From Bacteroidales bacterium (GTDB lineage: Bacteria; Bacteroidota; Bacteroidia; Bacteroidales; P3), in assembly GCA_017469625.1 (NCBI GenBank), contig JAFUGA010000027.1, positions 7,628-71,627 on the forward strand: DNA of 64,000 nt. The letters run 5' to 3'. The notes under the pieces were generated by a model. That model did no database searches. It had not been told where the DNA came from and saw nothing but the letters and a program-made list of their open reading frames with translations. The translations under genes were made by a program, and so were the position numbers. This document shows, piece by piece, positions 9,961-37,883 of this stretch. The first letter of the stretch is position 1. Every line of letters starts with the position of its first letter.

Positions 9961-9968
9961 TAACTTTG
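9961..9968 (+). promoter_or_regulatory. -7 promoter box TAACTTTG upstream of the polysaccharide locus
   Basis: TAnnTTTG match 88 nt upstream of the ATG at 10056. It is the only such box between repeat B and the first locus gene. Confidence 0.45.
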
Positions 9969-10055
9969 CACCTCATTTTTAATATATTTCTTTTGTTAGT
10001 CTATGGGACTGACAGGGCTTTGCCGTTTTTGGATGTTAGGTCTTAAAGGTGTTAA

Positions 10056-12643: not shown

Positions 12644-12645
12644 TT

Positions 12646-13869
12646 ATGAAAAAAGTTATAATCTTCACACAACCTTTACGCATCAATTTTGGAGGAATAC
12701 TCCAAGCCTATGCTCTTCAAAAGACAGTAAGAGATTTAGGTTTTGATGTTATAACAGATAATCCTACTTTGAGAAGAAGATCTTTAATAGTTATATTAAA
12801 AGACTATGCAGCAAGGTTCTTTTATGGAGTTTTGAAAAACGATGACAAATATAAACCTTTTTTCAAAAAACGAGTGAAAAAAGAAGATTATGAAGTTATA
12901 TCTCGTAATCCTCAGAGGTTTATAAAAGAAAATATAAGGACTGTAGATTTTTTTTGCGGAAAACGACATCCTGATAAAAACAAAATAAAACAATACGATA
13001 TATATATAGCAGGTAGCGACCAAGTTTGGCGAAGAAGATATGCAGATGTTAAAAGATATTTCTTTGATTTTTTGGACGATGATTCTATAGATAGATTTTC
13101 TTATGCGGCTTCTTTTGGAGTAGATAATTTGAACGAGTATTCATTGGAAGAAAAGCAGATTTGCAAACAACTTGTTAAGAAATTCAAAGCCGTAAGCGTT
13201 AGAGAGTCCTCTGCAATAGATATTTTGAAAAAAGAGTTTGACCAAGAGGCAGTCTTGGTTTTAGACCCTACTATCCTATTGACAAAAGAGGATTATCTAA
13301 AACTTTGTTCTAATTTTTTAGAATCAAGTTCTACAAACGTAGAATCAAGTTTTAGAAAATTAAAACAAAGTTCTACAAACGAAGAAAAAGGAGATAAAAA
13401 ACGTATGTTTTGTTATGTCCTTGACCAAACAGAACAGACGGGTACTTTGACAAAAAAACTTGCTACTTATTTAAATATGGATACTGAGGGTGTAGGAGTT
13501 AAAGAAAATGTAGATTCAAAAGCCGAAGATATAACCCAATATATACTTCCAGATGTAGAGAAATGGATAATGATGTTTGATGATAGCGATTATATCTTTA
13601 CGGATTCTTTTCACGGTACAGTATTCTCCATTATTTTCAATAAACCTTTTGTAGTCATAATCAATAAAATAAGAGGTGGTTCAAGGTTGTATTCTTTGCT
13701 TTCTTTGTTAGGGTTGGAGGGTAGGATAATAAATTCTGAAGAAGATTTGACAGAGGAGTTTCTAAATCATCTTTACGATATAGATTACGAAAAAGTAAAT
13801 AAAAAGAAAGAAGAACTAAGAGAGTTTTCTTTGAATTATCTTAAACGTGCTTTAGGAGTAGAAGAATAA
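12646..13869 (+). CDS. polysaccharide pyruvyl transferase carrying an in-frame 21-bp-repeat insertion
   Basis: 407 aa. GGILQAYALQKTV, IAGSDQVWRR and TDSFHGTVFSIIFNKPF motifs shared with the paralog at 26694-27898. An extra segment SNFLESSSTNVESSFRKLKQSSTNEE is encoded by repeat units. Confidence 0.8.
   Translation: MKKVIIFTQPLRINFGGILQAYALQKTVRDLGFDVITDNPTLRRRSLIVILKDYAARFFYGVLKNDDKYKPFFKKRVKKEDYEVISRNPQRFIKENIRTVDFFCGKRHPDKNKIKQYDIYIAGSDQVWRRRYADVKRYFFDFLDDDSIDRFSYAASFGVDNLNEYSLEEKQICKQLVKKFKAVSVRESSAIDILKKEFDQEAVLVLDPTILLTKEDYLKLCSNFLESSSTNVESSFRKLKQSSTNEEKGDKKRMFCYVLDQTEQTGTLTKKLATYLNMDTEGVGVKENVDSKAEDITQYILPDVEKWIMMFDDSDYIFTDSFHGTVFSIIFNKPFVVIINKIRGGSRLYSLLSLLGLEGRIINSEEDLTEEFLNHLYDIDYEKVNKKKEELREFSLNYLKRALGVEE
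13303..13386. repeat. phased 21-bp repeat array, copy C (4 units, inside a CDS, in frame)
   Basis: CTTTGTTCTAATTTTTTAGAA / TCAAGTTCTACAAACGTAGAA / TCAAGTTTTAGAAAATTAAAA / CAAAGTTCTACAAACGAAGAA. These are the same unit types as the intergenic arrays. Confidence 0.85.
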
Positions 13870-14876: not shown

Positions 14877-14892
14877 ACCTGTATTTTTTGTT

Positions 14893-15744: not shown

Positions 15745-15775
15745 GAAATTTTCTCAAAGAAAAGATAACACATAG

Positions 15776-18419: not shown

Positions 18420-18455
18420 AACATACGAGAGTATAACAAAACAATAATATAGAGA

Positions 18456-19619: not shown

Positions 19620-19808
19620 TTTGTTTTAATTTTCTAAAACTAAGAAAGAGATTTCTAAAACTTTGTTTTAATTTCGTAGAACTTGATTCTAATTTTCTAA
19701 AACGAAGAGATAGAATTCTAAAACAAAGTTCTACGAAATTAAAACAAAGAGATAGAAAATTAAAACAAAGTTCTACAAAAATAGAATAAAGAGATAGAAA
19801 AATAAAAG
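19620..19808. repeat. phased 21-bp repeat array, copy D (9 exact-register units) between fnlB and fnlC
   Basis: CTTTGTTTTAATTTTCTAAAA / CTAAGAAAGAGATTTCTAAAA / CTTTGTTTTAATTTCGTAGAA / CTTGATTCTAATTTTCTAAAA / CGAAGAGATAGAATTCTAAAA / CAAAGTTCTACGAAATTAAAA / CAAAGAGATAGAAAATTAAAA / CAAAGTTCTACAAAAATAGAA / TAAAGAGATAGAAAAATAAAA. Confidence 0.95.
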
Positions 19809-19815: not shown

Positions 19816-20985
19816 ATGGATTACAAACATATACAGTTCAAAAACAACGGTAAATTAAAACTCCTTATAATAGTAGGAACAAGACCTGAAATCATACGTT
19901 TGGCAGCCGTTATAAACAAATGTAGAAATTATTTTGATACTATTTTGGCTCATACGGGACAAAATTATGATTATAACCTTAATGGGATATTTTTTAAAGA
20001 TTTAAAACTTCAAGATGCTGAAGTTTATATGAACGCTGTTGGCAATGATTTGGGACAAACCATAGGAAACATTATAGCAGAGTCTTACAAACTTATGGTG
20101 GATATAAACCCAGATGCTTTGTTGATATTGGGCGATACAAATTCTTGCCTTTCTGCTATAGCAGCAAAACGTTTGCATATACCTATCTTTCACATGGAGG
20201 CTGGAAACCGTTGCAAAGATGAATGTTTGCCAGAAGAAACCAACAGAAGAATAGTAGATATAATCTCAGATGTAAATCTTGCATATTCAGAACACGCAAG
20301 AAGATATTTGGCAGAATGTGGTTTGCCAAAGGAAAGAACGTATGTTACCGGTTCTCCTATGGCAGAGGTTCTTAGAAACAACTTACAGGAGATAGAATCT
20401 TCGCAAATACTTGATAAATTGGGATTAAAGAAAAAAGGGTATATACTTTTATCTGCTCATAGAGAAGAAAACATAGACACAGAAAAGAATTTCATATCCT
20501 TATTTACTGCCATAAACAAATTGGCAGCAAAATATGATATGCCTATACTTTATTCTTGCCACCCAAGAAGTAAAAAAAGATTGGAACAAAGCAAGTTTGA
20601 ACTTGATAAACGTGTAATACAGCACGAACCATTGGGATTTCATGACTACAATAACTTGCAAATGAATGCTTTTGCGGTAGTTTCAGACAGTGGAACTTTG
20701 CCAGAAGAAAGTAGTTTCTACACTTCTTTGGGTAAAAGTTTTCCTGCTATCTGCATAAGAACGAGTACAGAACGCCCAGAGGCTTTGGACAAGGCTTGTT
20801 TTGTGCTTGCTGGTATAGATGAAAAAAGTTTGTTGCAAGCAGTAGAACTTGCAGTGGATATGAACGAAAACACCGACAACGGAATACCTGTTCCAAACTA
20901 CACAGACGAAAACGTATCAACCAAGGTTGTGAAAATAATACAATCTTATACAGGTATAGTAAATAAGATGGTGTGGAGAAAATAG
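19816..20985 (+). CDS. fnlC: UDP-N-acetylglucosamine/UDP-L-PneNAc 2-epimerase FnlC/CapG
   Basis: 389 aa. IVGTRPEIIRL, HTGQNYDY, LILGDTNSCL, FHMEAGNRC, SAHREENID, IRTSTERPE and VSTKVVKIIQSY all match the CapG/FnlC pattern. Confidence 0.9.
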   Translation: MDYKHIQFKNNGKLKLLIIVGTRPEIIRLAAVINKCRNYFDTILAHTGQNYDYNLNGIFFKDLKLQDAEVYMNAVGNDLGQTIGNIIAESYKLMVDINPDALLILGDTNSCLSAIAAKRLHIPIFHMEAGNRCKDECLPEETNRRIVDIISDVNLAYSEHARRYLAECGLPKERTYVTGSPMAEVLRNNLQEIESSQILDKLGLKKKGYILLSAHREENIDTEKNFISLFTAINKLAAKYDMPILYSCHPRSKKRLEQSKFELDKRVIQHEPLGFHDYNNLQMNAFAVVSDSGTLPEESSFYTSLGKSFPAICIRTSTERPEALDKACFVLAGIDEKSLLQAVELAVDMNENTDNGIPVPNYTDENVSTKVVKIIQSYTGIVNKMVWRK

Positions 20986-20989
20986 AAGA

Positions 20990-22183
20990 ATGAAAAAAAT
21001 TCTTGTCATATCTGAGGTTTTTTACCCCGAGAACTTTCTTATAAACGACCTTGTAAAAGAATGGAAAAAGCAGGGTTATAAGGTGGATATTATAAGTCAA
21101 TATCCGTCTTATCCCGAAAGTTATGTCTTTCCCGGATATGAAAACAAGGGAGAATCTATAGAAGAATGGGACGGCTCAAAAATATATAGGTTTCCATTTA
21201 TAGAAGGATATAAAACCAGTATAAGAAAGAAAATCTCTAACTATATAAAATACGTACGTGGAGCATCAAAGATAGGAAAGAGGATAGCAGGTGATTATGA
21301 CTTAGTGTTTGTATCTCAGACAGGACCTCTTACAGTGGCTTTGCCTGCTATTGCTATTAAAAAGAAATATCATAAACCTGTATCTATATGGACTTTTGAT
21401 ATTTGGCCCGATGTTGTGTATATGTACGGAGTTCCAAGATTTTTTTTGACAAGAATATTACTTAATCTTTTCGTTGCTTACGTATATAAAAATTGTGATA
21501 ATATCTTGGTTTCAAGTTCAGGCTTTAAAGATTCTATAGCAAAGTATGCAGGAGAGAAAACTATAACTTATACTCCTAATTGGTTGCAGCCTGTGGATTT
21601 TGTCATAAGTGAGATAAGGCTTGACAACACAAAATTTAACTTTACTTTTACCGGAAATATTTCTTTGTACCAAAATATGATAAACGTTGTAAAAGGTTTT
21701 GATGAAGCAAAACTTGAAAACAGTATTTTGAACATAATAGGTAACGGGTCATCATATACAGAGGTTAAGGAATATATAGAAGAACACAATATAAAGAACG
21801 TCAATCTGCATAAAAGAATACCATACAACCAAATAGACGATATATTGCGACATAGCGATGTTTTCGTTTTGCCTCTTATACCAAACGAGGAGATAGAAAA
21901 GACAGAACCACTGAAACTTCAGTCTTACTTGTCTGTAGGCAAGCCTATATTTGGTATTCTTAATGGGACGTGTAAGACAATCATAGAAGAAAATAACTTA
22001 GGTTTATGTTCCGACCCTGCAGATATTCATTCTATAGCAGAAGGTTTTAGAAATATGAGGATATTTTCTGAACAAAACACAGAGAAAGTAAGACTCTCTG
22101 CTATGAAACTAAAAGAAGAAAGATACAATAAAGAAAAGATAATACAGAAAATAAATAAGACTATAGGTTTACTTAGTAAATAG
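20990..22183 (+). CDS. GT4 glycosyltransferase, WbuB-like (L-FucNAc transferase family)
   Basis: 397 aa. N-terminus MKKILVISEVFYPENFLINDL. Sits directly after fnlC, as in L-FucNAc clusters. Confidence 0.7.
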   Translation: MKKILVISEVFYPENFLINDLVKEWKKQGYKVDIISQYPSYPESYVFPGYENKGESIEEWDGSKIYRFPFIEGYKTSIRKKISNYIKYVRGASKIGKRIAGDYDLVFVSQTGPLTVALPAIAIKKKYHKPVSIWTFDIWPDVVYMYGVPRFFLTRILLNLFVAYVYKNCDNILVSSSGFKDSIAKYAGEKTITYTPNWLQPVDFVISEIRLDNTKFNFTFTGNISLYQNMINVVKGFDEAKLENSILNIIGNGSSYTEVKEYIEEHNIKNVNLHKRIPYNQIDDILRHSDVFVLPLIPNEEIEKTEPLKLQSYLSVGKPIFGILNGTCKTIIEENNLGLCSDPADIHSIAEGFRNMRIFSEQNTEKVRLSAMKLKEERYNKEKIIQKINKTIGLLSK

Positions 22184-22188
22184 TATTT

Positions 22189-23646
22189 ATGGCAGAATCT
22201 CTAAAAAACAAAGCATTCTCTGGAATGGTGTGGGTAGGACTTGAAAAATTTGCATTACAGATTTTTGCATTTATTCAAGGTGTAATAATGGCACGATTGC
22301 TTATGCCCTCAGACTATGGTTTGGTTGCTATGACAGGAGTCTTCTTTTCTATATCATATACTTTTATAGACTCAGGATTTTCTAATGCTTTGATAAGAAA
22401 GAAAGACCTAATCCCTGTAGATTATTCTACAGTATATGTTACCAATGTAATATTATCTTTGTTCTTTGCTATACTTTTGTGTTTATGTTCTTCACTTATA
22501 GCAAACTTTTACAAAGAACCCATACTTCAACAAATAGTTTGTGTAGATGCTTTATCATTATTTTTAGGTTCTTTTTTGGCAGTACAGGGAGTAAGGCTAC
22601 AAGTAAATCTTAACTTCAAAGTCTTAAGTATAATAACCGTTGCAGAAAATGTTATAGGTGGTATAGCATCTATAGTTCTTGCCTTTTTAGGTTTTGGAGT
22701 TTGGTCATTGGTGTATCCTGCTTTTGTAAAGATAGTAGTAAAGGCTGTTTTGTTCTGGTACTATCAAAGATGGTTTCCAGGAATAAGGTTTTCCAAACAG
22801 TCTTTCAAGGAACTGTTTGCTTATGGTTCAAAACTACTAATATCAAGACTAATAGATTCTATATATAATAATATATACCCTTTGGTAATAGGAAAAAAGT
22901 TTTCATCAAAAGATTTAGGATTTTACACAAAAGCAACAGGCTATGCCAACTTACCTGCTATGACAGTGTCAGATGTTTTAGGTAGGGTAACCTTTCCTGT
23001 TTTGGCCAAACTACAAGACGATGAACCTACTCTGCAAAGAGTATATAGAAGAATGATACGTCTTTCTGCTTATGTGTTGTTTCCTATTATGGTAGGTGTA
23101 TCTGTTTTGGCTTATCCTCTTATAGTGTTACTTATAGGTATAAAATGGGAACCCTCTGTTATATACTTACAGATACTTTGTTTTGTTTTAATGTGGTATC
23201 CTATACATGCACTAAACCTCAACCTTTTGCAAGTTAAGGGTCGTTCGGATTTATTTCTTAGATTGGAAATAATAAAGAAAATAGTTGGTGTAATCATTCT
23301 TGTTATTACAGTGCCTATGGGTTTGATAGCTATGTGTGTAGGGGGTATTTTTTCTTCTATCATTTGTCTGGCTATAAATACCTACTACACAGGAAAACTG
23401 ATAAATGTAGGCTTTTTCAAACAAATGAAAGATTTGTTGCCAACACTTATTTACTCTCTTTCAATGGGTGTAGTTATTTATTGGAGTGTGTATTTTATCT
23501 CTTCATTATGGTTGAAATTGATAATAGGTCTGATAGTAGGAGTAGTGTTCTACTTTGGATTATCAAAACTTACTAAATCTCAAGATTTGGTTTATTTAAA
23601 AGAACTTTTACAAGAGAATATTTTATCAAGATGGAAAAAACAATAA
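22189..23646 (+). CDS. wzx: Wzx-type polysaccharide flippase (MOP superfamily), copy 2
   Basis: 485 aa multi-TM. N-terminus KNKAFSGMVWVGLEKFALQIFAFIQGVIMARLLMPSDYG is typical of the polysaccharide biosynthesis protein family. Confidence 0.8.
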   Translation: MAESLKNKAFSGMVWVGLEKFALQIFAFIQGVIMARLLMPSDYGLVAMTGVFFSISYTFIDSGFSNALIRKKDLIPVDYSTVYVTNVILSLFFAILLCLCSSLIANFYKEPILQQIVCVDALSLFLGSFLAVQGVRLQVNLNFKVLSIITVAENVIGGIASIVLAFLGFGVWSLVYPAFVKIVVKAVLFWYYQRWFPGIRFSKQSFKELFAYGSKLLISRLIDSIYNNIYPLVIGKKFSSKDLGFYTKATGYANLPAMTVSDVLGRVTFPVLAKLQDDEPTLQRVYRRMIRLSAYVLFPIMVGVSVLAYPLIVLLIGIKWEPSVIYLQILCFVLMWYPIHALNLNLLQVKGRSDLFLRLEIIKKIVGVIILVITVPMGLIAMCVGGIFSSIICLAINTYYTGKLINVGFFKQMKDLLPTLIYSLSMGVVIYWSVYFISSLWLKLIIGLIVGVVFYFGLSKLTKSQDLVYLKELLQENILSRWKKQ

Positions 23647-24737
23647 ATGTTACCTCGCCACTTCTTCCAAATATAGAAGAATTCGGTGAAATGTTAAAAG
23701 AAATTTGGGACAGTAAATGGATAACCAATAACGGTAGTTTTCATAAACGTTTGGAAGAAGCATTATGTGAATATTTGAAAGTACCATATATTAGTTTGTT
23801 TACAAACGGAACCTTACCTCTTATTACTTCTTTGCAAGCAATGAGAATATCTGGTGAAGTTATAACTACACCTTATAGTTTTGTTGCTACAACTCATTCT
23901 CTTTGGTGGAATGGTATAAAACCTGTTTTTGTAGATATATTAGAAGAAACAGGAAACATAAACCCTGAGAAAATAGAACAAGCAATAACGCCAAAGACTA
24001 CCGCTATAATGCCTGTACATGTTTATGGAAAACCTTGCGATACTAAGGCTATACAAGAGATAGCTGACAAATATGGATTGAAAGTTATTTACGATGCAGC
24101 ACACGCTTTTGGTGTAGAAGTAAATGGAGAAAGTCTTTTGAATGCTGGTGATTTATCTACTTTGTCTTTCCATGCTACAAAAGTTTATAACACCATAGAA
24201 GGAGGTGCTTTGGTAATGCACGATGAGAAGACAAAGAAAAGAATAGATTATCTTAAGAATTTTGGTTTTGCAGGCGAAACAGAAATAGTTGCACCAGGTA
24301 TAAACTCAAAGATGGACGAGATACGTTCGGCTTATGGTCTTTTGAATTTGAAACAGGTAGATGAGGCAATAGAAAAACGCCACCAAGCAGCAATAAAGTA
24401 TAGACAAGTTTTAAAAGATGTTAAAGGTATTAGATTTTGGGACGATATACAGGGAGTAAAACATAACTATTCTTATTTTCCAATCTTTGTAGATGCAAAC
24501 GAATATGGCAAAACAAGAGATGAACTATATTTTGATATGCAAAAACAAGGTGTATATGGAAGACGTTATTTCTATCCTTTGATAAGTACATTTACAACCT
24601 ATAAAGGATTGGATAGTGCAAAACCTTCCAACTTGCCTGTGGCTACAAAGATGGCAAACGAAGTTATTTGCTTGCCTATGTATAGCGATTTGTCAGAACA
24701 AGATGTAGAAAGAGTTTTAGATTGTATTGTAAAATAG
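23631..24737 (+). CDS. DegT/DnrJ/EryC1/StrS-family sugar aminotransferase (PLP-dependent)
   Basis: 368 aa. DAAHAFG and LSFHATKVYNTIEGGA (PLP-lysine) motifs. Confidence 0.85.
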   Translation: MEKTINVTSPLLPNIEEFGEMLKEIWDSKWITNNGSFHKRLEEALCEYLKVPYISLFTNGTLPLITSLQAMRISGEVITTPYSFVATTHSLWWNGIKPVFVDILEETGNINPEKIEQAITPKTTAIMPVHVYGKPCDTKAIQEIADKYGLKVIYDAAHAFGVEVNGESLLNAGDLSTLSFHATKVYNTIEGGALVMHDEKTKKRIDYLKNFGFAGETEIVAPGINSKMDEIRSAYGLLNLKQVDEAIEKRHQAAIKYRQVLKDVKGIRFWDDIQGVKHNYSYFPIFVDANEYGKTRDELYFDMQKQGVYGRRYFYPLISTFTTYKGLDSAKPSNLPVATKMANEVICLPMYSDLSEQDVERVLDCIVK

Positions 24738-24747
24738 ATATTATATT

Positions 24748-25683
24748 ATGACAAATGAGCCTGTATTTTTAACCATACACTGTTTAGTATATAACCACGA
24801 ACCGTTTTTAAGGGAGTGTTTAGATGGTTTTGTAATGCAGAAAACTAACTTCCGCTTTGAAGCCATAGTACATGACGATGCATCAACGGATAATTCTGCA
24901 AAGATAATACAAGAGTATGCAGAGAAATACCCAAATATAATAAAACCAATACTTCAAAAAGAAAACCAATGGTCAAAACACGCTGATTTAGGTTTAATAC
25001 TAAAAAACGCTACAGCAAAGACAACAAAATATATAGCCACTTGCGAAGGTGATGACTATTGGACAGACCCTAATAAACTACAAAAACAAGTAGATTTTTT
25101 AGAATCTCACCCAGATTATGTAGCCTGCGGACACGATATAAAGATAAAGTACGAAAAGAAAAATGTATATATAGATGATGTAATTATAAAACAGGCAATA
25201 GAAAATGATACAAAAACCTACTATATAGATTTTACCAAAGAAGACTACCTAAAAGAATCTAAATGGTTGTTGCATACCATATCAGTAGTACGTAGAAATA
25301 TAAAAATTCCAGAAAAAACTTTTTTTGATACAGAACTATTTTACTTCCTTTTTACAAAAGGAAAGATTGCCATACTAAAAGATAAGATGGGAGTGTATAG
25401 AAAACATTCTGGAGGAATGACAAACAGAACTATATATCAAGCAATAAAAAGAGAAATAATAGATTTTTATTCACTATATAAAAGGTATAAAGATAAGATG
25501 ATAATCTATCGTTTGAGTTGTAAAGAATTTGTTCTTTTGTACGATGAGTATCATAATTATGGAATAAAGAAAGCAATAAAAACACTAAGAGAATATAGAC
25601 ATATAACAGATAATTATGTTTTCTTTAGATTTCTAATTTCTTTTCCTAAACAACTTTATAAGATGAAAACAAATACTCTTTAA
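24748..25683 (+). CDS. glycosyltransferase family 2 (tandem paralog 1)
   Basis: 311 aa. HDDASTDNS and CEGDDYW (DxD) motifs. The first ~125 aa are nearly identical to the next gene. Confidence 0.8.
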   Translation: MTNEPVFLTIHCLVYNHEPFLRECLDGFVMQKTNFRFEAIVHDDASTDNSAKIIQEYAEKYPNIIKPILQKENQWSKHADLGLILKNATAKTTKYIATCEGDDYWTDPNKLQKQVDFLESHPDYVACGHDIKIKYEKKNVYIDDVIIKQAIENDTKTYYIDFTKEDYLKESKWLLHTISVVRRNIKIPEKTFFDTELFYFLFTKGKIAILKDKMGVYRKHSGGMTNRTIYQAIKREIIDFYSLYKRYKDKMIIYRLSCKEFVLLYDEYHNYGIKKAIKTLREYRHITDNYVFFRFLISFPKQLYKMKTNTL

Positions 25684-25739
25684 TTCACCGAAGAAATGTA
25701 TAACCCACTTTTATTTTAAAACAAGCCAAATACCATATT

Positions 25740-26687
25740 ATGACAGAAGAACCAGTATTAGTAACCATACATAGTTTAGTTTACAATCACGAACCGTTTT
25801 TAAGAGAGTGTTTAGACGGTTTTGTCATGCAGAAAACTAATTTTCGTTTTGAAGCCATAGTACATGATGATGCATCAACGGATAATTCCGCAAAGATAAT
25901 ACAAGAGTATGCAGAAAAATACCCAGATATAATAAAACCTATATTTGAGAAAGAAAACCAATATTCAAAACATAACAACATAGGTTTGATATTACAAAGT
26001 GCTACAGCAAAGACAACAAAGTATATAGCCACTTGTGAAGGCGATGATTATTGGACAGACCCTAATAAACTGCAAAAACAGTTTGATTTTTTAGAATCAC
26101 ACCCAGACCATTCAGCAGTAACAACAGACAATATAGATTATTGGGAAAACGAAAAGAGATTTGATGAACACTCAAAATGGTATTACTTAAATAGAATACC
26201 TAAAATAAACGGATTGAAGACTGCTACTTTGCACGATTTCTTTTATAATATAGAATGGATGTATTCTACTTGTACCCTAATGAGAAGAAATAATGGTGTA
26301 GAACTCTCACTACAAAAATATACATACAGGTACGACACTGTAAAAACATATTATCTTCATAAACAAGGAAAAATATCTATGATGCAGGATTGTACAGCAG
26401 TTTACCGTTATCACGATGGAGGAGTATGGTCTTCAAATACTAAGGAGAATAATGCTTGGGTGGGTGGTGTTTGTTACTATGAAATATACAAAATAGAGAA
26501 CGAAAAAGATGCTTTAAATAATGCAAATGAATATTTAAGTTATTATTTAAGACTATGTTATGAAGGTGGAGGTGTAGTTAGGTTAATAAAAGGTTTTATA
26601 AAAGTGCTTAAACTAATAGACTTTTATGCTTTCTATAGATTTTGTTCTTTTGAGATAGAGAAAATATTTAAAAAACTGAAAAAATAA
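25740..26687 (+). CDS. glycosyltransferase family 2 (tandem paralog 2)
   Basis: 315 aa. Same N-terminal ~125 aa as 24748-25683, then an unrelated C-terminal half. Confidence 0.8.
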   Translation: MTEEPVLVTIHSLVYNHEPFLRECLDGFVMQKTNFRFEAIVHDDASTDNSAKIIQEYAEKYPDIIKPIFEKENQYSKHNNIGLILQSATAKTTKYIATCEGDDYWTDPNKLQKQFDFLESHPDHSAVTTDNIDYWENEKRFDEHSKWYYLNRIPKINGLKTATLHDFFYNIEWMYSTCTLMRRNNGVELSLQKYTYRYDTVKTYYLHKQGKISMMQDCTAVYRYHDGGVWSSNTKENNAWVGGVCYYEIYKIENEKDALNNANEYLSYYLRLCYEGGGVVRLIKGFIKVLKLIDFYAFYRFCSFEIEKIFKKLKK

Positions 26688-26693
26688 CTTTCT

Positions 26694-27898
26694 ATGAGAA
26701 AAATACTTATAATATCTTTACCATTTAATAATAACTATGGTTACCTATTACAAAACTATGCTTTACAGAAGACTGTAAAAGATTTGTTTAAAGAAAAACA
26801 AATAGAAGATGTTCTTGTACAAACGGACTATAGGTGGAATTTGCAGAAAAATAGTCCTTTGAAAAAACTGTTGCTATTCTTTTATAGACTATTCAGATTG
26901 TATGTAAAAAAGGAATATGTTTATAAAAACAACCTATGGAACGATAATATACAGAAGACTTATCTTACCCCTCTTTTGATGGAAAAACAAAGAGTATTTG
27001 TAGATAAGTATCTGAATATGATAAATTTTACAGAAAAATGGGGGGGGGGGTAAAACTTTTCCCTAATAATAAAGATTTTCCTTATGATACCGTCATAGTA
27101 GGTTCAGACCAAGTGTTTAGACCTGCTTATGCAGAAAATATAAGACAATCCTATTTGGATTTTCTACAAGATAAACAAGTTACAAGAGTATCTTACGCTG
27201 CTTCGTTTGGTTGCAGAGATGAAAGAGAATACACCAAAAAAGAGTTAGAATACTGTAGTTTGTTGGCAAAAAAGTTTGATGCTATTTCTGTGAGAGAAAC
27301 CTCTGCTATAGATATTTGCAAACGTTGTTTCTCCATAGATTCTTTGGTTATGCCAGACCCTACTTTTCTTTTGAATAAACAAGATTATGAAAAGTTGATA
27401 GAAGACAAAGAAACCTCAAAATACAAAGGCAAGATAGGTTATTATTTTCTTGAAGACACAAAGCAAAACTTCACTTTGCTACATTCTTTGCAACAAACAA
27501 CAAACTTAGATATAGAAAGAATAGGACAGAAACAAAAACCAACTCCACAAACCAAAGACTATACAGATTGTATCTTTCCTTCCATATCCGAATTTTTTGC
27601 AGGATTTAGAGATAGTGAATATATAATAACAGACTCTTATCACGGAATGATATTCTCTATTATATTCCATAAACAGTTCTTTATTATAGACAAGAAAAAT
27701 GTAAATATAGAAAGAATAAAACATTTGTTGGATATATTTCCATTAAAAGAAAGGTTTATAGATTCTTCTCAGGAGATAGATAAGTTTTACTCTATGCCTA
27801 TAGATTATGAAACTATAGACAAACAAAGAGAGAAAATGAAAAAAGAAGGAAAAGACTTCCTAAACAAATACGTAGTGGAGAAAAATTTATCTAAATAA
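26694..27898 (+). pseudogene. polysaccharide pyruvyl transferase split into two ORFs by a frameshift at a G11 tract (phase-OFF candidate)
   Basis: ORF 26694-27053 (NNNYGYLLQNYALQKTV) and ORF 27038-27898 (VGSDQVFRP...TDSYHGMIFSIIFHKQF) together are collinear with the 407-aa paralog at 12646-13869. The junction is the G11 run. Confidence 0.8.
27040..27050 (+). repeat. homopolymeric G11 tract (slipped-strand phase-variation candidate)
   Basis: Counted directly: the g at 27040 plus ten g at 27041-27050. G12 or G9 would fuse the two ORFs. Confidence 0.9.
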
Positions 27899-27917
27899 GA
27901 TTTATTTTAAAACATAT

Positions 27918-28901
27918 ATGCCAGAAGTAAGTATAATAGTTGCTGTATATAAAGCAGAGGATTATATAAGAAGATGTATTGAGAGTATTTTATCTCAAAC
28001 ATTTAAGGATTTTGAACTTTTGCTTGTAGATGATGGTTCGCCCGATAAAAGTGGTGAAATATGCGAAGAGTATGCACAAAAAGACGATAGAGTAAGAGTT
28101 TTTCATAAACCAAACGGAGGAGTAAGTCATACAAGACAGTATGGTTTGGAAAGGACAAGAGGAAAATATGTTATACACATAGACCCTGATGATTACTCAG
28201 AGCCTACTATGTATGAAAAACTTTATAACAAGGCCATAGAAGAAGATAGCGATATGGTAATATGCGACTTTTTTAACGAAACTATATATGGTAACTTTTA
28301 TATGTTGCAAAGGCCTACTTCATTGTCTGCAAACGATGTTCTGCACGATTTACTCTCAGGAAAAATATGGGGAACGGTTACAAACAAGTTGATAAAGAAA
28401 GAATGCTTTGAAAAATACAACGTTACCTTTCCTAAGGATATAAACCTATGGGAAGATTTGTTTGTATGTTGTAGTCTTTTGAGAAATAATATAAAAGTAT
28501 CTTATATAAACGAGATATTATATCATTATGACAACATTACAAACCAAACATCTATGGTAAGAAAGATTACCCTAAAATCTGTACAAGACCAAGACGCTTT
28601 CATACGCCATTTTTCAGATATTATGACAGAAGAAGAACTGTATTTCAGAAAAGAAAACACACTCCTAAGGGCTTTTGCTGGTAGGGTAATGAGTGCAGAA
28701 GAATTTAGAAACTTTTATCCTGAGATAAACTCTCTTTATATACAAAAACACAAACGAGATTTCAAACATATAGAACCTTTTTTACTTGCTATGCTATTGA
28801 AAGGAACAAACGAGAAACTAATATATACACTGTACGATACAACAACGAGATTGGTGTTCTTATACCGTAAGATAAGAAAAATAATGGGGGGGAGAAAATA
28901 G
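27918..28901 (+). CDS. glycosyltransferase family 2 (paralog group a)
   Basis: 327 aa. VSIIVAVYKAEDYIRRCIESILSQTF, LLLVDDGSPDKSGEICE and IDPDD motifs. Confidence 0.85.
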   Translation: MPEVSIIVAVYKAEDYIRRCIESILSQTFKDFELLLVDDGSPDKSGEICEEYAQKDDRVRVFHKPNGGVSHTRQYGLERTRGKYVIHIDPDDYSEPTMYEKLYNKAIEEDSDMVICDFFNETIYGNFYMLQRPTSLSANDVLHDLLSGKIWGTVTNKLIKKECFEKYNVTFPKDINLWEDLFVCCSLLRNNIKVSYINEILYHYDNITNQTSMVRKITLKSVQDQDAFIRHFSDIMTEEELYFRKENTLLRAFAGRVMSAEEFRNFYPEINSLYIQKHKRDFKHIEPFLLAMLLKGTNEKLIYTLYDTTTRLVFLYRKIRKIMGGRK

Positions 28902-28907
28902 AATATC

Positions 28908-30068
28908 ATGATAGAGATAAAAGATAAAAAAGATTGTTGTGGCTGTGCAGCGTGCGAGTCTATCTGCAAGCAAAACTGTATAACTATGGTTTCAGATACA
29001 GAGGGCTTTCTTTACCCAAAGGTAGATAAAACCATCTGTATAGACTGTAATATGTGCGAAAAGGTTTGTCCTGTTTTGGCAAAAAAGGATAGGAGAGAAC
29101 CACTTCAAACCTTTGCTGCAAAAAATAAAGATATAGAAACAAGACGACAAAGTTCTTCTGGAGGAGTTTTTTCTCTTATAGCCTCACAAGTTATAGAAAA
29201 AGGAGGAAAAGTATATGGTGCAGTGTTTGATGAAAACTTTGATGTGTGTCATTCTTGTATAGAAAAGAAAGATGATTTACATCTTCTTAGAGGTTCAAAA
29301 TATGTTCAGAGTAACACACAAGGAATATTTCCAAAGGTAGAAAAAGACTTAAAGGACGGCAAACTTGTATTGTTTTCTGGCACTCCTTGTCATACAGCAG
29401 GACTTAGAACATTCCTTAGAAAAGATTATGACAACCTTATTCTATTAGATGTTGTTTGCCACGGAGTACCAAGTCCTAAGGTTTGGAGATTGTATTTGGA
29501 CAAGATAAGACAAGGAGAGAAAGTAACAAGTGTTTCTTTCAGAGATAAGGCAAAGGGTTGGAACAATTCAAGTATAACTATTAAGACCACAAAAAGAACT
29601 ATCTCACAAATAATGTATGGAAATACATACGTAAAAGGTTTTCTGAAAAATCTATATCTTCGTCCTGCTTGTCATCATTGTGCTTTCAAAGGGTATAAGT
29701 CTTTGAGTGATATAACCCTTGCAGACTTTTGGGGAGTAGAAAAAGAATATAAGGATTTTGCAGATAGAGATGGCGTTAGCCTTGTTATGATAAACACTTT
29801 GAAAGGCAAAGAGTGTTTGGATTTATCAAAGGTGGATAGTATAGAGACTTCGTTGGATTTTGCTGTAAAAAACAACTCTCCTATTGTTTCTTCTGTCAAA
29901 CCATACGAAACAAGAGAATACTTTTTTGCAAACATAGACAAAAAACCTATAGACAAACTTATAGAAAAAAGTCTTGCTCGTCCATGGGAAGATTTTAAAG
30001 ACAAGATAAAACATTATATAGTTATAGTTTTAAGATTTTTACATATAAAGAAACCCCTATGCCTTTAG
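28908..30068 (+). CDS. FrhB/FdhB-like (coenzyme F420 hydrogenase beta-subunit family) 4Fe-4S protein
   Basis: 386 aa. Two ferredoxin-type cysteine clusters (CCGCAACESIC, CIDCNMCEKVCP) followed by an FrhB-like domain (SSSGGVFS...GTPCHTAGL...VCHGVPSP). This family commonly accompanies pyruvyl transferases in polysaccharide loci. Confidence 0.7.
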   Translation: MIEIKDKKDCCGCAACESICKQNCITMVSDTEGFLYPKVDKTICIDCNMCEKVCPVLAKKDRREPLQTFAAKNKDIETRRQSSSGGVFSLIASQVIEKGGKVYGAVFDENFDVCHSCIEKKDDLHLLRGSKYVQSNTQGIFPKVEKDLKDGKLVLFSGTPCHTAGLRTFLRKDYDNLILLDVVCHGVPSPKVWRLYLDKIRQGEKVTSVSFRDKAKGWNNSSITIKTTKRTISQIMYGNTYVKGFLKNLYLRPACHHCAFKGYKSLSDITLADFWGVEKEYKDFADRDGVSLVMINTLKGKECLDLSKVDSIETSLDFAVKNNSPIVSSVKPYETREYFFANIDKKPIDKLIEKSLARPWEDFKDKIKHYIVIVLRFLHIKKPLCL

Positions 30069-31012
30069 TAAGTGTAATTATTCCTGTTTATAAAGCAGAA
30101 CAGTATATAGAAAAATGTATAGAAAGTTTTTTATCTCAAACTCTGAGAGATTTTGAACTTGTGCTTGTAGATGATGGTTCACCAGATAGAAGTGGAGAAA
30201 TATGTGAAAGTTTCACTGCAGATAAAAGGGTGAAAGTTTTTCATAAACAAAACGAAGGTGTAGCCCTTACGAGAGAATACGGTATGAATAAAGCAATAGG
30301 CGAATATACTATACACGCAGACCCGGACGATTGGGTGGAAAAGACTATGCTTGAAAAACTTTACAATAAAGCAAAGCAAGATGATGCGGATATGGTAATA
30401 TGCGATTTCTACCTTGAAACAAATGGCAAAGTTCTTTATCAACATCAAAAGCCTACAACAAACTCTACTGTGGCTAAGGATATATTACGCTTTAACATAG
30501 AGAGGTCTTTATGTACCAAACTTATAAGGAGAGAATGTTACAGTAGATATGATGTGCATTTTGTAAAGGGCTTCAATCATGGAGAGGACTTTTTGGTTTC
30601 TATGCAACTATGTTGTCACCCAGAACTGAAGATTTCTTATCTACCAGAGGCTTTTTATCATTATGTAAAGATATTCAACGAAAACTCTATAACGAAAAAC
30701 CGTGAAAATTCTTACAACAAAGAGTCTTTTGATTATGATTGCAGATATTTACAAGTGCTTTCAAAATACATAGACGACAAAGAAGAATACGATTATCAAG
30801 AGGCGGTGAATATTTTTAGGGCTTTTAGTTACAAGGTTTTCACTTCCAAAGAGTTCAAAGATAATTTCTACTCCAAAAGAAAGATGTTATATCACCAAAT
30901 GGGTAAAATGAAAGGTGGACTCTTATATCTGTCTTCTTTGGGTTTTAATTGGTTGTCATATCCTTTGTACAAGATTATCTCAAACACGAAAAAGACTATT
31001 CTAAACTCTTAA
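30059..31012 (+). CDS. glycosyltransferase family 2 (paralog group a)
   Basis: 317 aa. VSVIIPVYKAEQYIEKCIESFLSQT, LVLVDDGSPDRSGEICE and ADPDDW motifs. Confidence 0.85.
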   Translation: MPLVSVIIPVYKAEQYIEKCIESFLSQTLRDFELVLVDDGSPDRSGEICESFTADKRVKVFHKQNEGVALTREYGMNKAIGEYTIHADPDDWVEKTMLEKLYNKAKQDDADMVICDFYLETNGKVLYQHQKPTTNSTVAKDILRFNIERSLCTKLIRRECYSRYDVHFVKGFNHGEDFLVSMQLCCHPELKISYLPEAFYHYVKIFNENSITKNRENSYNKESFDYDCRYLQVLSKYIDDKEEYDYQEAVNIFRAFSYKVFTSKEFKDNFYSKRKMLYHQMGKMKGGLLYLSSLGFNWLSYPLYKIISNTKKTILNS

Positions 31013-31077
31013 CCCATAAACACACAATAAAATAAAGAAATTCTTACTCTTTTAACTGAAATATAAAAACTTTATCT

Positions 31078-31085
31078 TAACTTTG
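31078..31085 (+). promoter_or_regulatory. internal -7 promoter box TAACTTTG within the polysaccharide locus
   Basis: TAnnTTTG match in the 219-bp gap, directly abutting repeat array E and 146 nt upstream of the ATG at 31232. Confidence 0.35.
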
Positions 31086-31090
31086 CAGAA

Positions 31091-31195
31091 CTTTATTTCG
31101 TGTTTCTATCTCTTTGTTTTAATTTTCTCTTTCTTTGTTTTAGAAAATTAAAACAAAGCTTTAGAAAAATAGAATAAGGTTTTAGAAAATTGTAA
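31091..31195. repeat. phased 21-bp repeat array, copy E (5 units)
   Basis: CTTTATTTCGTGTTTCTATCT / CTTTGTTTTAATTTTCTCTTT / CTTTGTTTTAGAAAATTAAAA / CAAAGCTTTAGAAAAATAGAA / TAAGGTTTTAGAAAATTGTAA. Confidence 0.85.
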
Positions 31196-31231
31196 CTTTA
31201 TTATATAAATATATAACTGTGTTTTAACTTA

Positions 31232-32170
31232 ATGGCTTTAATAAGTGTAATTGTTCCTATATACAAAGCAGAAGATTATATAAGAAGATGTGTTGAGAGT
31301 ATTTTATCTCAGACGTTTGAGGATTTTGAACTACTGCTTGTAGATGATGGTTCGCCCGATAATAGTGGTGAGATATGCGAGCAGTATACACTAAAAGATA
31401 GTAGAGTAAAAGTTATACACAAACAAAACGGAGGAGTAGCCTCTGCAAGACAAGAGGGACTAAACCATTCCACAGGAACATACACCATACATGCAGACCC
31501 AGACGATTGGGTAGAGAAAACGTGGTTGGAAGATTTGTACTCCAAATCCCAAGAGATAGAAAACGGAGCCGATATTGTAGTTTGCGACTATTATTTTGAT
31601 ACAGAAAAAAAATCTACAATCTTTTCTCAAAAACCAGAGGAAGAAACACCGCAATCTTTCCTTGATGGAATGGTGAGAGATAAACATTTAGGAGCCTTAT
31701 GGAACAAACTTATAAAACGTTCCTGCTATGAGAGATACGGCATCTTTTTTGAAAAAGATTTGAACTATTGTGAAGACTTTCTTGTTTGCGTAAAACTATT
31801 GTTACATAACGATGTAAAACTCCTATATTTAGATAAACCACTCTACCATTACGACCAGATAGTGAATAAACTTGCTTATACAAAGACCTATTCTCAAAAG
31901 ATACATTCGTATGACTGTATGCTTATGGAGATACTAAAACCTATGCTTACCAAACCTCTGTACGATGCTCGTATATATGTTGTGGCTTATAAAGAATTTA
32001 ATTCTAAGATGCTGACTTCAAAAGAGTTCAAAGCCAAATATTTTTCTATGAAAAACATTCTTTGGAAAGAATCTCCTATGAAGTTGAAACTCTTTATGTA
32101 TTTTTCGGCTTGTGGTTTTATGTTCATATTAAGACCTATTTATAGCCTATTTCAGAAAATAAAAAATTAG
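31232..32170 (+). CDS. glycosyltransferase family 2 (paralog group a)
   Basis: 312 aa. ISVIVPIYKAEDYIRRCVESILSQTF, LLLVDDGSPDNSGEICE and ADPDDW motifs. The 5' ~150 nt are about 90% identical to 27918-28901 by eye. Confidence 0.85.
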   Translation: MALISVIVPIYKAEDYIRRCVESILSQTFEDFELLLVDDGSPDNSGEICEQYTLKDSRVKVIHKQNGGVASARQEGLNHSTGTYTIHADPDDWVEKTWLEDLYSKSQEIENGADIVVCDYYFDTEKKSTIFSQKPEEETPQSFLDGMVRDKHLGALWNKLIKRSCYERYGIFFEKDLNYCEDFLVCVKLLLHNDVKLLYLDKPLYHYDQIVNKLAYTKTYSQKIHSYDCMLMEILKPMLTKPLYDARIYVVAYKEFNSKMLTSKEFKAKYFSMKNILWKESPMKLKLFMYFSACGFMFILRPIYSLFQKIKN

Positions 32171-32186
32171 AAAACTATAAGAAGAT

Positions 32187-33218
32187 ATGCTATTGTGGAT
32201 TGCTATATTAGTTATTTTGTATGCTCTAAGTCAGTTTTATAGATACAACCCTTTGATATTCTGGTCCAGTGTCATAATCCTCATACTTTTGGCAGGATTT
32301 AGGGACGTTACTATGGGAGTAGATACCAGAAGTTACAAACAAGGTATGGAATATGTTTCTATGGGAATATCGCCATACAAAGAATACGGGTGGAATAAAC
32401 TGAATTGGTTTATAATAAACCACGGTAAAGATTTTCACATGCTAACACTTTTGGCTTCTATTCTTACTATAGTACCTGTAGCATTAGTTTTCGTACGTTC
32501 AAGTGCTAATCCTCAGTTCTCTTTGTTTGTATATTATGCTATGTTTGCTTATCTTAACTCCTTTAACGGTATGCGTCAGTTTATTGCTATATCGTTTGTT
32601 TTGGTTGCATATATGTTTTTCATAGAGGATAAAAAGATATGGACTTTGATTTTTATCTTTTTGGCATACCAATTTCACCATTCGGCGTGGTACTCTGTCA
32701 TAGTGTTTGCTCTTCCTTATATAAAACTGAACAAGGATTTGTATGTATATTTACTTCTTATAGTTACTTTGGCTTTAGGTTGTGTTTTCAATGCTAATAT
32801 CTTTAAAACCCTATCTTTTGGTTACTCTTCGTACGTGGATTCCTCTAACTTTGGATATAGGGACTCTTTCCTATGGGGATTTATCCTCTCTTTGCTTATG
32901 AATGGTTTGTTTGTGTATATGTACATAAAAACAGAAGCAAGCAGAAGAAATTCATTGATATTCAAAATCTTCTTTCTCTCTATACTTATAAACAATACAA
33001 CTTTTAGACTCGTGCTTGGAGCAAGACTTATACTTTATTTCACTATAATACAAACGTTGTTGTTCCCACGATATTTCAACTATAGATACCAATACACAAG
33101 ATGGATAATTCTGACTTATCTTACTGTTTTGTTCTTGAAAATTCTTAACTCTTCAGGTGGTTTTGTCGGAGGAGTTTATCCATATAAGAGCGTTATTTCA
33201 CAATATATTTATTACTAA
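32187..33218 (+). CDS. EpsG-family / Wzy-like polysaccharide polymerase candidate
   Basis: 343 aa, about 10 TM segments, aromatic-rich. Composition and size fit the EpsG/O-antigen polymerase class. It is the only such protein in the locus. Confidence 0.6.
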   Translation: MLLWIAILVILYALSQFYRYNPLIFWSSVIILILLAGFRDVTMGVDTRSYKQGMEYVSMGISPYKEYGWNKLNWFIINHGKDFHMLTLLASILTIVPVALVFVRSSANPQFSLFVYYAMFAYLNSFNGMRQFIAISFVLVAYMFFIEDKKIWTLIFIFLAYQFHHSAWYSVIVFALPYIKLNKDLYVYLLLIVTLALGCVFNANIFKTLSFGYSSYVDSSNFGYRDSFLWGFILSLLMNGLFVYMYIKTEASRRNSLIFKIFFLSILINNTTFRLVLGARLILYFTIIQTLLFPRYFNYRYQYTRWIILTYLTVLFLKILNSSGGFVGGVYPYKSVISQYIYY

Positions 33219-33221
33219 GAG

Positions 33222-34043
33222 ATGTTGTTTTCCGTTATCATACCTTTATATAATAAAGCTGAATACATAAGACAGACTGTAGAAACTGTGCTTAGACAAA
33301 GTTTTTCGGACTTTGAGATAATTATAGTCAATGATGGTTCTACGGATAATAGTGTTGAGGTTGTAAATTCTATAAAAGATAACCGTATAAACCTTTATTC
33401 CAAAGAGAATGAGGGTGTTTCCATAGCGAGAAATTATGGTATAAGTCTATCAAAAGGTGAGTACATAACTTTTCTTGATGCAGACGATGAGTGGCACGAA
33501 GACTTTTTGAAGAATATGCACGATTTGATACAGCATTATCCTAAAAACGCTTTCTATACTACAGCAACGATTTTGAATAGAGAAGGAAAACATCAGATAA
33601 TAACACATAAGAAACAAAGGGGAGAATGTTTTGAAATAGAGGATTACTGTTGGGATAGGACATTTACAAGAATCAATCTTTGTGCAGTAGGTTCTGTTTG
33701 CATAAAAAAAGATTTGCTTGATAGGGTTGGAGGTTTTCCTGTTGGGGTAAAATATGGTGAGGATTTGGATTTATGGTTGCGTTTGGCTTGCATAACGAAG
33801 TTGGTTTATTCAAACAAACCTTATTTTACTTATAACATAACAACCCTGAACAATACAGCAACAAACTATAGAGATAAGAACTTTGTTTTTCCTTATTGGA
33901 AATGGTACGACTACAAGTATTCAAAAAAACTCAGCCTTTATTTGTTTGCTACAAGACAAATATTGGGAGAAATGAAAGATGCTTTATCTGCCAAAAAGTT
34001 TTCAGACTTTTGGTTTTACTTAAAGAAAATAAGACTGTTCTAA
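33222..34043 (+). CDS. glycosyltransferase family 2
   Basis: 273 aa. FSVIIPLYNKAEYI, IIIVNDGSTDNS and FLDADDEW motifs. Confidence 0.85.
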   Translation: MLFSVIIPLYNKAEYIRQTVETVLRQSFSDFEIIIVNDGSTDNSVEVVNSIKDNRINLYSKENEGVSIARNYGISLSKGEYITFLDADDEWHEDFLKNMHDLIQHYPKNAFYTTATILNREGKHQIITHKKQRGECFEIEDYCWDRTFTRINLCAVGSVCIKKDLLDRVGGFPVGVKYGEDLDLWLRLACITKLVYSNKPYFTYNITTLNNTATNYRDKNFVFPYWKWYDYKYSKKLSLYLFATRQILGEMKDALSAKKFSDFWFYLKKIRLF

Positions 34044-34044
34044 G

Positions 34045-35133
34045 ATGAAGAAAGATGTAAAGAAAATAAGATTTTTTATTCCTTCTTTGGTGAATTCTGC
34101 CGGTATGGAAAGAATATCTACAGGTTTGGCAAATATCTTACAAAGGCAAGGTTATAATTGTGGTTTTGTGGTAAAGGATAGCGATACTACTTCTTTCTTT
34201 CCTCTACATAGTTCTATACAAGTGAAGTCTATACTTTCAGACGGAGATATAAAAAAGGTAAGATACAAGGCTGCAAAAAGATTGCGTCAATACTTAAAGA
34301 GAGAAAAACCTGACGTACTTATAAATGTAGATGTTTCTATGATACAGATTTCAGCCCTTGCTTTTACTCGTTTGTATGGGGTTAAACTTCTGACTTGGGA
34401 ACAGTTTTCTGCTGGTGCTATAAACACATTTGCAAAAAAGATTCAGAGATATTTGGCAGCTTTTATCAGTAAAAAACTCATTGTACTAACAAAGGCAGAC
34501 AAACAGATGTACCCTTTATTTTTGCAAAACAAAGTTGAGATTATAGGAAACTTTACTCAGATAAACCCAGATAATATTCTATCCACCTTAGACAACAAAA
34601 CCGCTCTTTCTGTAGGAAGAATGGCAAAAGAGAAAGGTTTTGATTTGCTTATAAAAGCGTGGAAGAAAGTAAAGGAACAAAATTCCGATTGGCACTTAAG
34701 AATAATAGGGGGAGGAAAACAAGAGTATGTGGATTATTTACAAGGTATTGTAGATAGTTTGTCTTTAAACGATGTTGTGAAAATACTACCTCCTACAAAA
34801 GAGATAGGCAAAGAGTATGCAGAGGCTTCACTCTATGTTTTGCCATCAAGACACGAGCCTTTTGGATTGGTACTTATAGAGGCTAAATCTTTTGGTCTGC
34901 CTACTGTTTCTTTTGATTGTCCATACGGACCAAAGGAAATAATAAACGATAAGATAGACGGTTATCTTGTAGAGAACGAAAACACTGACGATTTGGCAGA
35001 AAAGATAAACAATCTAATATCTGACAAAGACAAAATGCAATCTTTTTCACTCAAAGCCATAGAAGATTACAACAAGAGATGGACAGAAAAATGTGTGGAA
35101 GAGAAATGGTTGAACCTATTAAAAAGATTATAA
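34045..35133 (+). CDS. glycosyltransferase family 4 (GT-B)
   Basis: 362 aa. LPSRHEPFGLVLIEAKSFGLPTVSFD (E-x7-E) motif. Confidence 0.85.
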   Translation: MKKDVKKIRFFIPSLVNSAGMERISTGLANILQRQGYNCGFVVKDSDTTSFFPLHSSIQVKSILSDGDIKKVRYKAAKRLRQYLKREKPDVLINVDVSMIQISALAFTRLYGVKLLTWEQFSAGAINTFAKKIQRYLAAFISKKLIVLTKADKQMYPLFLQNKVEIIGNFTQINPDNILSTLDNKTALSVGRMAKEKGFDLLIKAWKKVKEQNSDWHLRIIGGGKQEYVDYLQGIVDSLSLNDVVKILPPTKEIGKEYAEASLYVLPSRHEPFGLVLIEAKSFGLPTVSFDCPYGPKEIINDKIDGYLVENENTDDLAEKINNLISDKDKMQSFSLKAIEDYNKRWTEKCVEEKWLNLLKRL

Positions 35134-35139
35134 TATACT

Positions 35140-35892: not shown

Positions 35893-35895
35893 ATT

Positions 35896-36891: not shown

Positions 36892-36897
36892 TAAAGA

Positions 36898-37778: not shown

Positions 37779-37883
37779 TATTGTTTCGTTCTCGTAAAGC
37801 TTTGTTTTAATTTTCTAAAACAAAGAGATAGAAAAATAAAACAAAGTTCTACAAAATTAAAACAAAGTTTCGCTGAAGCAAAA
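37779..37883. repeat. phased 21-bp repeat array, copy F (5 units)
   Basis: CTTTGTTTTAATTTTCTAAAA (37800) / CAAAGAGATAGAAAAATAAAA / CAAAGTTCTACAAAATTAAAA / CAAAGTTTCGCTGAAGCAAAA, preceded by a TTTCGTTCTCGTAAAG terminal-type unit. Confidence 0.85.

Follow-up and report, generated by a model that had tools for sequence, protein, structure and literature searches.

Poly-G tracts that switch glycan genes have been described in Neisseria (PMC2192423, PMC2193922) and Campylobacter (PMC6321876, PMC8437040). In the Bacteroidales, phase variation of capsules has been described as inversion of promoters or of genes (PMC12632263, PMC11868660), and slippage at simple-sequence repeats (SSRs) has only been speculated upon, for a C4/C5 run in the PSI acetyltransferase gene of Bacteroides fragilis (PMC3090145). 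Here we analyse an 11-G homopolymer (tract 1) that interrupts a pyruvyl-transferase gene on contig JAFUGA010000027.1, of which a stretch of 64,000 nucleotides (nt), hereafter the window, was examined. The organism is an uncultured 'Bacteroidales bacterium' from the ruminant gut, represented by a metagenome-assembled genome (MAG); it is not a Bacteroides, which corrects the sequence-only reading of this DNA that we followed up. The names of the samples (XIEF21..., WOLF17...), taken by themselves, suggest ruminant gut studies. We consider it moderately probable that tract 1 is an SSR contingency locus that is currently OFF, i.e. out of frame. In a literature search, we came across neither a phase-variable pyruvyl transferase nor an established case of SSR phase variation in the Bacteroidales. 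The mechanism is thus a familiar one, and the taxon and the enzyme class are unusual for it.

As in the contingency genes for capsule and lipooligosaccharide of Campylobacter jejuni (PMC6321876, PMC8437040, PMC8355987), a low-GC genome carries an intragenic tract in the range of G9-G11 in a gene for a polysaccharide-decorating enzyme. In both systems a slip by one base shifts the reading frame, glycan loci hold more than one tract close together, and phage pressure is a plausible selector. Unlike in C. jejuni, the host belongs to the Bacteroidota, the enzyme is a pyruvyl transferase and not an O-methyl phosphoramidate (MeOPN), methyl or glycosyl transferase, the tracts number just two in ~84 kb, and none of the five alleles at hand is ON. 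With lgt (PMC2192423) and pgtA (PMC2193922) of Neisseria the locus shares a poly-G that encodes a glycine stretch within an open reading frame (ORF) for glycan biosynthesis, with frame-dependent expression; there, however, both ON and OFF states were shown experimentally, and the genomes are richer in GC, with short G runs arising by chance.

The G tracts of the sortase-dependent pilus genes of Bifidobacterium breve (PMC9187656) are similar in that a gut commensal carries a G10-12 tract, on account of which the first operon gene is annotated as two separate ORFs. In B. breve, the length found in databases is OFF or misleading, whereas the productive one makes up a minority and becomes enriched in vivo (PMC9187656). 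There, the target is a pilin, the host an actinobacterium and the evidence error-controlled deep sequencing, whereas here we rely on assemblies. Capsule switching in B. fragilis and B. thetaiotaomicron (PMC12632263, PMC3090145) concerns the same order and the same aim, variation of surface polysaccharides, but site-specific promoter inversion switches whole loci there, whereas an in-gene repeat would switch a single modification here.

A G11 tract within a pyruvyl-transferase gene

The features that bear on the tract are the following (coordinates are those of the window; aa, amino acids):

26694..27898, + strand: frameshifted pyruvyl-transferase gene (PF04230), 400/401 aa at G9/G12
27040..27050, + strand: tract 1, G11 homopolymer in the pyruvyl-transferase coding sequence, codons 116-119, reading W-G-G-G
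26694..27053, + strand: N-terminal fragment ORF, 119 aa (G11, ending in ...EKWGGG-stop) or 123 aa (G10), holding the invariant residues N14, G16, Q20 and L24
27038..27898, + strand: C-terminal fragment ORF, 286 aa, starting with MGGGVKLF; in the G11 state its ATG lies directly 5' of the tract
12646..13869, + strand: intact 407-aa pyruvyl-transferase paralog, the reference for collinearity; outside the proposed switch

The run occupies exactly positions 27040-27050 in the context ACAGAAAAAT-G11-TAAAAC. In the window, whose GC content is 32.1% and which served as the base for composition and run counts, it is the sole G or C run longer than 7; no C run exceeds 4, and the only other run of at least 6 is a G7 at 28886-28892. 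From the base composition of the window, ~1.7e-4 G runs of at least 11 would be expected. With the flanking sequences (L028 and L031) included, these two remain the only G/C runs of at least 6 in ~84 kb, and they bracket the pyruvylation module. Among the ORFs of the window, GGG is the least used glycine codon (32/673, 4.8%), and GGG-GGG encodes not one of the other 45 Gly-Gly pairs, so the run is not the product of coding alone. Tract 1 is therefore what is looked for in a contingency locus, a homopolymer far beyond composition inside an ORF.

The sequence-only reading had placed the run at this very position, had described G and C runs as rare, and had seen the two fragment ORFs overlap at the tract in different frames, all of which holds. 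It had also assigned G9 and G12 to the ON and G11 to the OFF state. Rebuilding the gene in silico showed this frame arithmetic to be right: G9 gives a 400-aa and G12 a 401-aa ORF in frame, and G8, G10, G11 and G13 lead to a stop at codons 118-124. In the G11 state, the zero-frame stop follows immediately 3' of the run. In silico, a change by one unit thus toggles between a full-length and a truncated product. The current annotation lists the two fragments of the window as a 'hypothetical protein' and a truncated pyruvyl transferase (MBQ9312266.1 and MBQ9312267.1).

The merged protein is matched by PF04230 (PS_pyruv_trans) from residue 14 to 333, across the junction, with 111.2 bits against a cut-off of 25.3, and covers profile positions 1-277 of 280. 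It is collinear from end to end with the intact 407-aa paralog (34% identity, E 1e-58), as had been proposed from the ORF list. An AlphaFold2 (AF2) model built on a 43-sequence alignment reached a predicted local distance difference test (pLDDT) of 86 and a predicted template modelling (TM) score of 0.87. Its top Foldseek match in the PDB was the yeast pyruvyltransferase Pvg1p (5ax7_A, E 5e-7, TM 0.47/0.55), followed by GT-B epimerases and glycosyltransferases. A search of the PDB by sequence alone gave no match, and a specific family was not found in NCBIfam. By its profile match the merged protein would be a polysaccharide pyruvyl transferase of the WcaK/CsaB/Pvg1 type, with a predicted GT-B-like fold close to that of a pyruvyl transferase of solved structure.

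W-G-G-G is located in a gapped, variable part of the family alignment, in which the homologs lack a glycine run. The model places residues 114-120 in a loop with pLDDT <50 within the N-terminal Rossmann-like domain, so that the gain or loss of one glycine (G9 versus G12) should be tolerated. In addition to the four invariant residues listed for the N-terminal fragment, the alignment shows G137-S-D-Q140, S171-F-G, R201-E, D222-P-T and D314-S-x-H317 as invariant 3' of the break. In G10 alleles the first start in the downstream frame is a GTG at V141, after the invariant G137-S-D-Q140; since this motif is dropped, activity of the fragments appears unlikely. For the same reason we rejected a split enzyme with two cooperating fragments, and also because the break falls inside the N-terminal Rossmann-like domain.

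Tract length and gene integrity among strains

Look-ups in protein collections and the contigs behind the hits provided five distinct alleles from ~18 contig records, some of which represent the same sample processed by different pipelines. Tract 2 denotes the G7 run further downstream, the second run of the module:

Window and L004: tract 1 G11, tract 2 G7
L007 and L008: tract 1 G10, tract 2 G7
L006: tract 1 G10, tract 2 G7
L001 and L002: tract 1 G10, tract 2 G10 (L001, 11774-11783; L002 ends before tract 2)
L003 and L009: tract 1 G10, tract 2 G9 (L003, 3078-3086; L009)

Apart from tract 1 (G10 versus G11), L007 differs from the window by two single-nucleotide polymorphisms (SNPs) in 14.5 kb and L008 by one SNP in 3.6 kb. 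Over 20.8 kb at 97.9% identity, the only in-gene indels between the window and L001 are the two G tracts. The length of tract 1 thus changes very fast relative to substitutions, and it is polymorphic among close strains with conserved flanks. A comparison of tract lengths across strains had been suggested along with the original proposal of a switch, and what it returned was G10 versus G11 in near-identical strains.

L006 was rejected as evidence for slippage, as its G10 is accompanied by three SNPs of the L001 type. L006 and the window differ by no other SNP in 14.4 kb; the three fall in an 82-bp stretch (26930-27012) just upstream of tract 1 and are identical to the L001 allele, and the G10 of L006 was therefore probably carried in on a small recombination patch and does not represent independent slippage.

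Some further differences between the strains were seen. In L003 and L009, two single-base deletions 9 nt apart (window 26564-26573) lie near the 3' end of the GT2 gene 25740-26687, which is shortened in these strains, leaving a gap of 82 nt to the next gene versus 6 nt in the window. The SNPs of the near-clonal L007 and L008 are all G-to-T, all damaging and all in polysaccharide genes: in L007, position 20866 gives E351stop in the UDP-N-acetylglucosamine (UDP-GlcNAc) 2-epimerase and 29160 gives G85stop in the FrhB-like gene downstream of the pyruvyl transferase, and in L008, position 29130 gives D75Y in the FrhB-like gene. They suggest selection on, or inactivation of, the locus within a clone; an artefact of oxidative damage is possible as well.

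With the tract set to G9, the 400-aa ORF is uninterrupted in three divergent lineages (window, L001 and L003), which span up to 7.7% nucleotide divergence without decay beyond the tract. Pairwise ratios of nonsynonymous to synonymous substitution rates (dN/dS) of the gene are 0.18, 0.31 and 0.21, inside the range of neighbouring intact genes (0.02-0.49), and they are similar when the N- and C-terminal fragments are taken separately. The synonymous excess is significant in each comparison (p = 6e-8, 3e-5 and 5e-11). With the 45-65 observed substitutions distributed randomly, one or more stops would be expected with P = 0.92-0.98; none is seen. These data argue that purifying selection acts on an intact, tract-corrected gene in all three lineages, i.e. 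selectively maintained as expected for a contingency locus, and that an ancestral, unexpressed frameshift would not produce this pattern of integrity and dN/dS. Further decay in relatives had been named in advance as a finding that would speak against a switch; in this gene the opposite was found.

Beyond these alleles, scanning the GTDB species genomes for the pattern of tract plus flanks returned one unrelated chance match in a Peribacteria MAG and no further alleles, and the same pattern scan of Joint Genome Institute (JGI) metagenome contigs returned nothing. A protein-guided scan of metagenome contigs found no further alleles, only relatives of at most 29% identity on human-gut contigs, without G/C runs. 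Homologous loci in other taxa have no such G tracts, and the tracts thus appear to be lineage-specific.

Explanations for an out-of-frame but conserved gene

Purifying selection on OFF alleles implies either that ON variants are regularly selected or that OFF templates yield enzyme by slippage. We favour the former. In the proposed SSR contingency locus, a hypermutable G tract would sit in the first third of a pyruvyl-transferase gene that is part of a long surface-polysaccharide operon of the Wzx/Wzy type, and strand slippage during replication would add or remove one G. At G9 or G12 the full GT-B-like enzyme of 400 or 401 aa would be made and the repeat unit pyruvylated. At G10 or G11 translation would end at codons 119-123, within the N-terminal Rossmann-like domain; neither fragment would have all invariant residues, and the polysaccharide would lack that pyruvate ketal. 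OFF lengths would dominate the populations sampled to date, and ON variants would be selected often enough, e.g. under changing pressure from phages, hosts or competitors, for the gene to stay intact. The reversibility and rate of switching, the existence of ON cells, the inactivity of the fragments, the phenotype and the selecting agent are all inferred.

Most of the computable properties of a contingency locus are present; the observation of both ON and OFF lengths is the one that is not. Of the slipped-strand phase switch that the sequence-only reading had proposed, the part that gained support is the polymorphic length in an otherwise intact, constrained gene; reversible ON/OFF switching did not, as all five alleles are OFF.

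Several findings weigh against the proposed switch. An ON length (G9 or G12) occurs in 0 of the 5 distinct alleles, four being G10 and one G11, so that ON and OFF lengths are not both seen among them. A collection of 15 billion proteins does not contain the exact ON protein of either the window or the L001 allele, and neither full-length nor junction-centred queries found a junction-spanning protein of >50% identity in a collection of 5.8 billion clusters. Lineages with different tract 2 lengths share G10, which is unexpected for a freely drifting tract, and one near-clonal relative, L007, carries the nonsense mutation in the FrhB-like partner mentioned above. Divergence between the alleles is patchy, and recombination with intact donors could therefore have contributed some of the dN/dS signal. 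Finally, it should be borne in mind that all sequences are consensus sequences from short-read metagenomes, and that lengths of G tracts in databases can misrepresent populations (PMC9187656).

That every public allele is OFF would also be expected from gene loss, with an accident-prone tract, a pyruvylation module that is dispensable or counter-selected in the rumen, independent recent knockouts in each lineage and a future pseudogene as the outcome. The other damaging changes in the locus of near-clonal relatives (G85stop and D75Y in the FrhB-like gene, E351stop in the 2-epimerase) fit such a course, as does the intact paralogous pyruvyl transferase upstream (12646-13869). The three lineages, however, show no decay beyond the tract at up to 7.7% nucleotide divergence, and both the low dN/dS (0.18-0.31) and the absence of stops, which neutrality would have produced with P 0.92-0.98, oppose it. 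Gene loss would further require repeated independent hits at one site and leaves the origin of a rare-codon G10-11 run at 32% GC, and of two runs per module, unexplained. Slippage from G9 to G10 moreover reverts too, so that the difference from phase variation lies in selection and not in mechanism. On balance we regard gene loss as doubtful.

Recoding is less probable still and, in our estimate, quite unlikely. Here the frameshifted template would be the normal state, and slippage would provide a low, set level of full-length enzyme, either by RNA polymerase (mRNA G10 to G9, G11 to G12) or by ribosomal frameshifting on the GGG codons. The gene would never be in frame at the DNA level and would form, together with tract 2, a slippage-tuned pyruvylation cassette with a low and noisy dose of enzyme, an arrangement that we likewise hold to be improbable. 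It would account for alleles that are all out of frame in spite of purifying selection on both halves, and for the presence of G10 in 4 of 5 alleles, whereas the nearby tract 2 varies by lineage; the recurrence of G10 despite a differing tract 2 favours recoding, or else a G9-to-G10 toggle. In the G11 state the zero-frame stop adjoins the run, and slipping by -1 at GGG_UAA would bring the ribosome to GUA and thus into the ON frame. 'OFF' SSR alleles can also leak via frameshift suppression (bioRxiv 10.64898/2026.04.01.715767).

The shifts required by G10 and G11 are opposite, however, and no single programmed ribosomal mechanism fits both. Downstream of tract 1, no significant stimulatory RNA structure was found (z = -0.94). 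A shift that is the same in orthologs and comes with a stimulator, as in programmed frameshifting or transcriptional slippage, thus does not seem to exist here. Productive transcriptional slippage is on record mostly at A/T runs (see also PMC1088944), which counts against recoding, and the difference in tract length between near-clones speaks for instability at the level of the DNA.

That the true tract is G9 or G12 and was miscounted is very improbable: every source is an Illumina metagenome assembly or MAG, and G tracts are hard to sequence, with reference lengths sometimes wrong (PMC9187656), but independent pipelines and samples agree on the length of each allele (G11 in the NCBI MAG protein MBQ9312266.1, in Logan SRR12529338 and in ENA; G10 in NCBI MBQ9254557.1, in a MEGAHIT-style ENA contig and in Logan runs), different alleles were consistently called with two different lengths, and a systematic miscount would have to yield an OFF length every time.

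The second tract, the surrounding locus and significance

Downstream of the pyruvyl-transferase gene, the module continues with:

27918..28901, + strand: GT2 glycosyltransferase gene, flanked by the pyruvyl-transferase and FrhB-like genes
28886..28892, + strand: tract 2, G7 homopolymer within the final codons of the GT2 gene 27918-28901; the FrhB-like ATG follows 16 nt downstream
28908..30068, + strand: gene for an FrhB/FdhB-like iron-sulfur protein (PF04432 and PF04422)

Tract 2 sits 1.85 kb downstream of tract 1. Its length alters only the C-terminal tail of the GT2 protein (MGGRK-stop, MGGGRK-stop or MGGGENRIS-stop) and decides whether the GT2 stop overlaps the start of the FrhB-like gene (ATGA). 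This is similar to C-terminal homopolymer switching in Helicobacter canadensis (PMC2823697), where length in the last codons swaps the tail and the stop. From the variation of tract 2 it is evident that the instability of long G runs in this lineage extends to sites of little consequence. A role as spacer that would switch the Shine-Dalgarno distance of the FrhB-like gene was considered and rejected: as the GGAG-like end is located 3' of the tract, the distance to the FrhB-like ATG is constant whatever its length.

The FrhB-like gene had been pointed out as a nearby partner, and both Pfam domains bear out its identity. In L034, an intact homologous locus of another organism (46% identity), pyruvyl transferase, GT2 and FrhB-like gene follow in the same order. 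In L035, a distant but intact homologous locus (48% identity), the FrhB-like gene is also found downstream, after a second, split pyruvyl-transferase-like gene instead of GT2. The 'partner' is therefore a conserved neighbour of this subfamily of pyruvyl transferases. A literature search found no paper tying FrhB-like proteins to pyruvyl transferases. The split gene of L035 (3646-4544) consists of pieces of 213 aa and 74 aa, and the locus lacks any G/C run of at least 7.

The pyruvyl-transferase gene belongs to a polysaccharide locus (~10056-37686) on a single strand, with two flippases, an EpsG-type polymerase, many GT2 and GT4 genes, LicD, sugar-nucleotide enzymes and a deacetylase. Two successive polysaccharide gene sets can be distinguished on this strand (10056-19610 and 19816-37686), and each has a separate pyruvyl transferase and a separate flippase-type gene (MatE-like at 10056; Polysacc_synt_3 at 22189); the G tracts are confined to the second set. 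In the invertible-promoter capsule switches of the Bacteroidales, inverted repeats enclose a promoter at the head of the locus, and upxY/upxZ usually come next. Here, a search that was not exhaustive identified no upxY-like gene upstream, and the only inverted repeats that it showed near the start of the locus (8000-10200), with arms 27-48 nt apart, are part of a short tandem/inverted repeat array.

A short intergenic repeat with the core CTTTGTTTTAGAA (12 matches versus 0.73 expected) is clustered in the gaps that bound the polysaccharide operons:

9763-9901, 19632-19728, 31133-31145, 37813-37825, 43810-43961 and 58318-58351: CTTTGTTTTAGAA repeat sites

Strain indels of 41-42 nt at window positions 19615 and 31151-31162 correspond to gain or loss of CTTTGTTTTAGAA units.

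What sets this locus apart is the host order, the constrained state of a gene that is OFF in every allele, and the paired tracts around the pyruvyl-transferase/FrhB-like module. Variation of surface polysaccharides in gut Bacteroidales has been ascribed almost wholly to DNA inversions (PMC12632263). If our reading is true, a repeat-slippage switch would add a further layer of finer grain, in which a single decoration, the charged pyruvate ketal, is turned on and off and not the whole capsule, and such a switch would operate in a ruminant lineage that is abundant though uncultured. Ketals of pyruvate change charge, recognition by lectins and antibodies, and phage adsorption, so that the switch could shape the dynamics between phages and hosts in the rumen. 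For annotation this means that genes in MAGs that are split by a homopolymer may be hidden contingency loci, and not junk.

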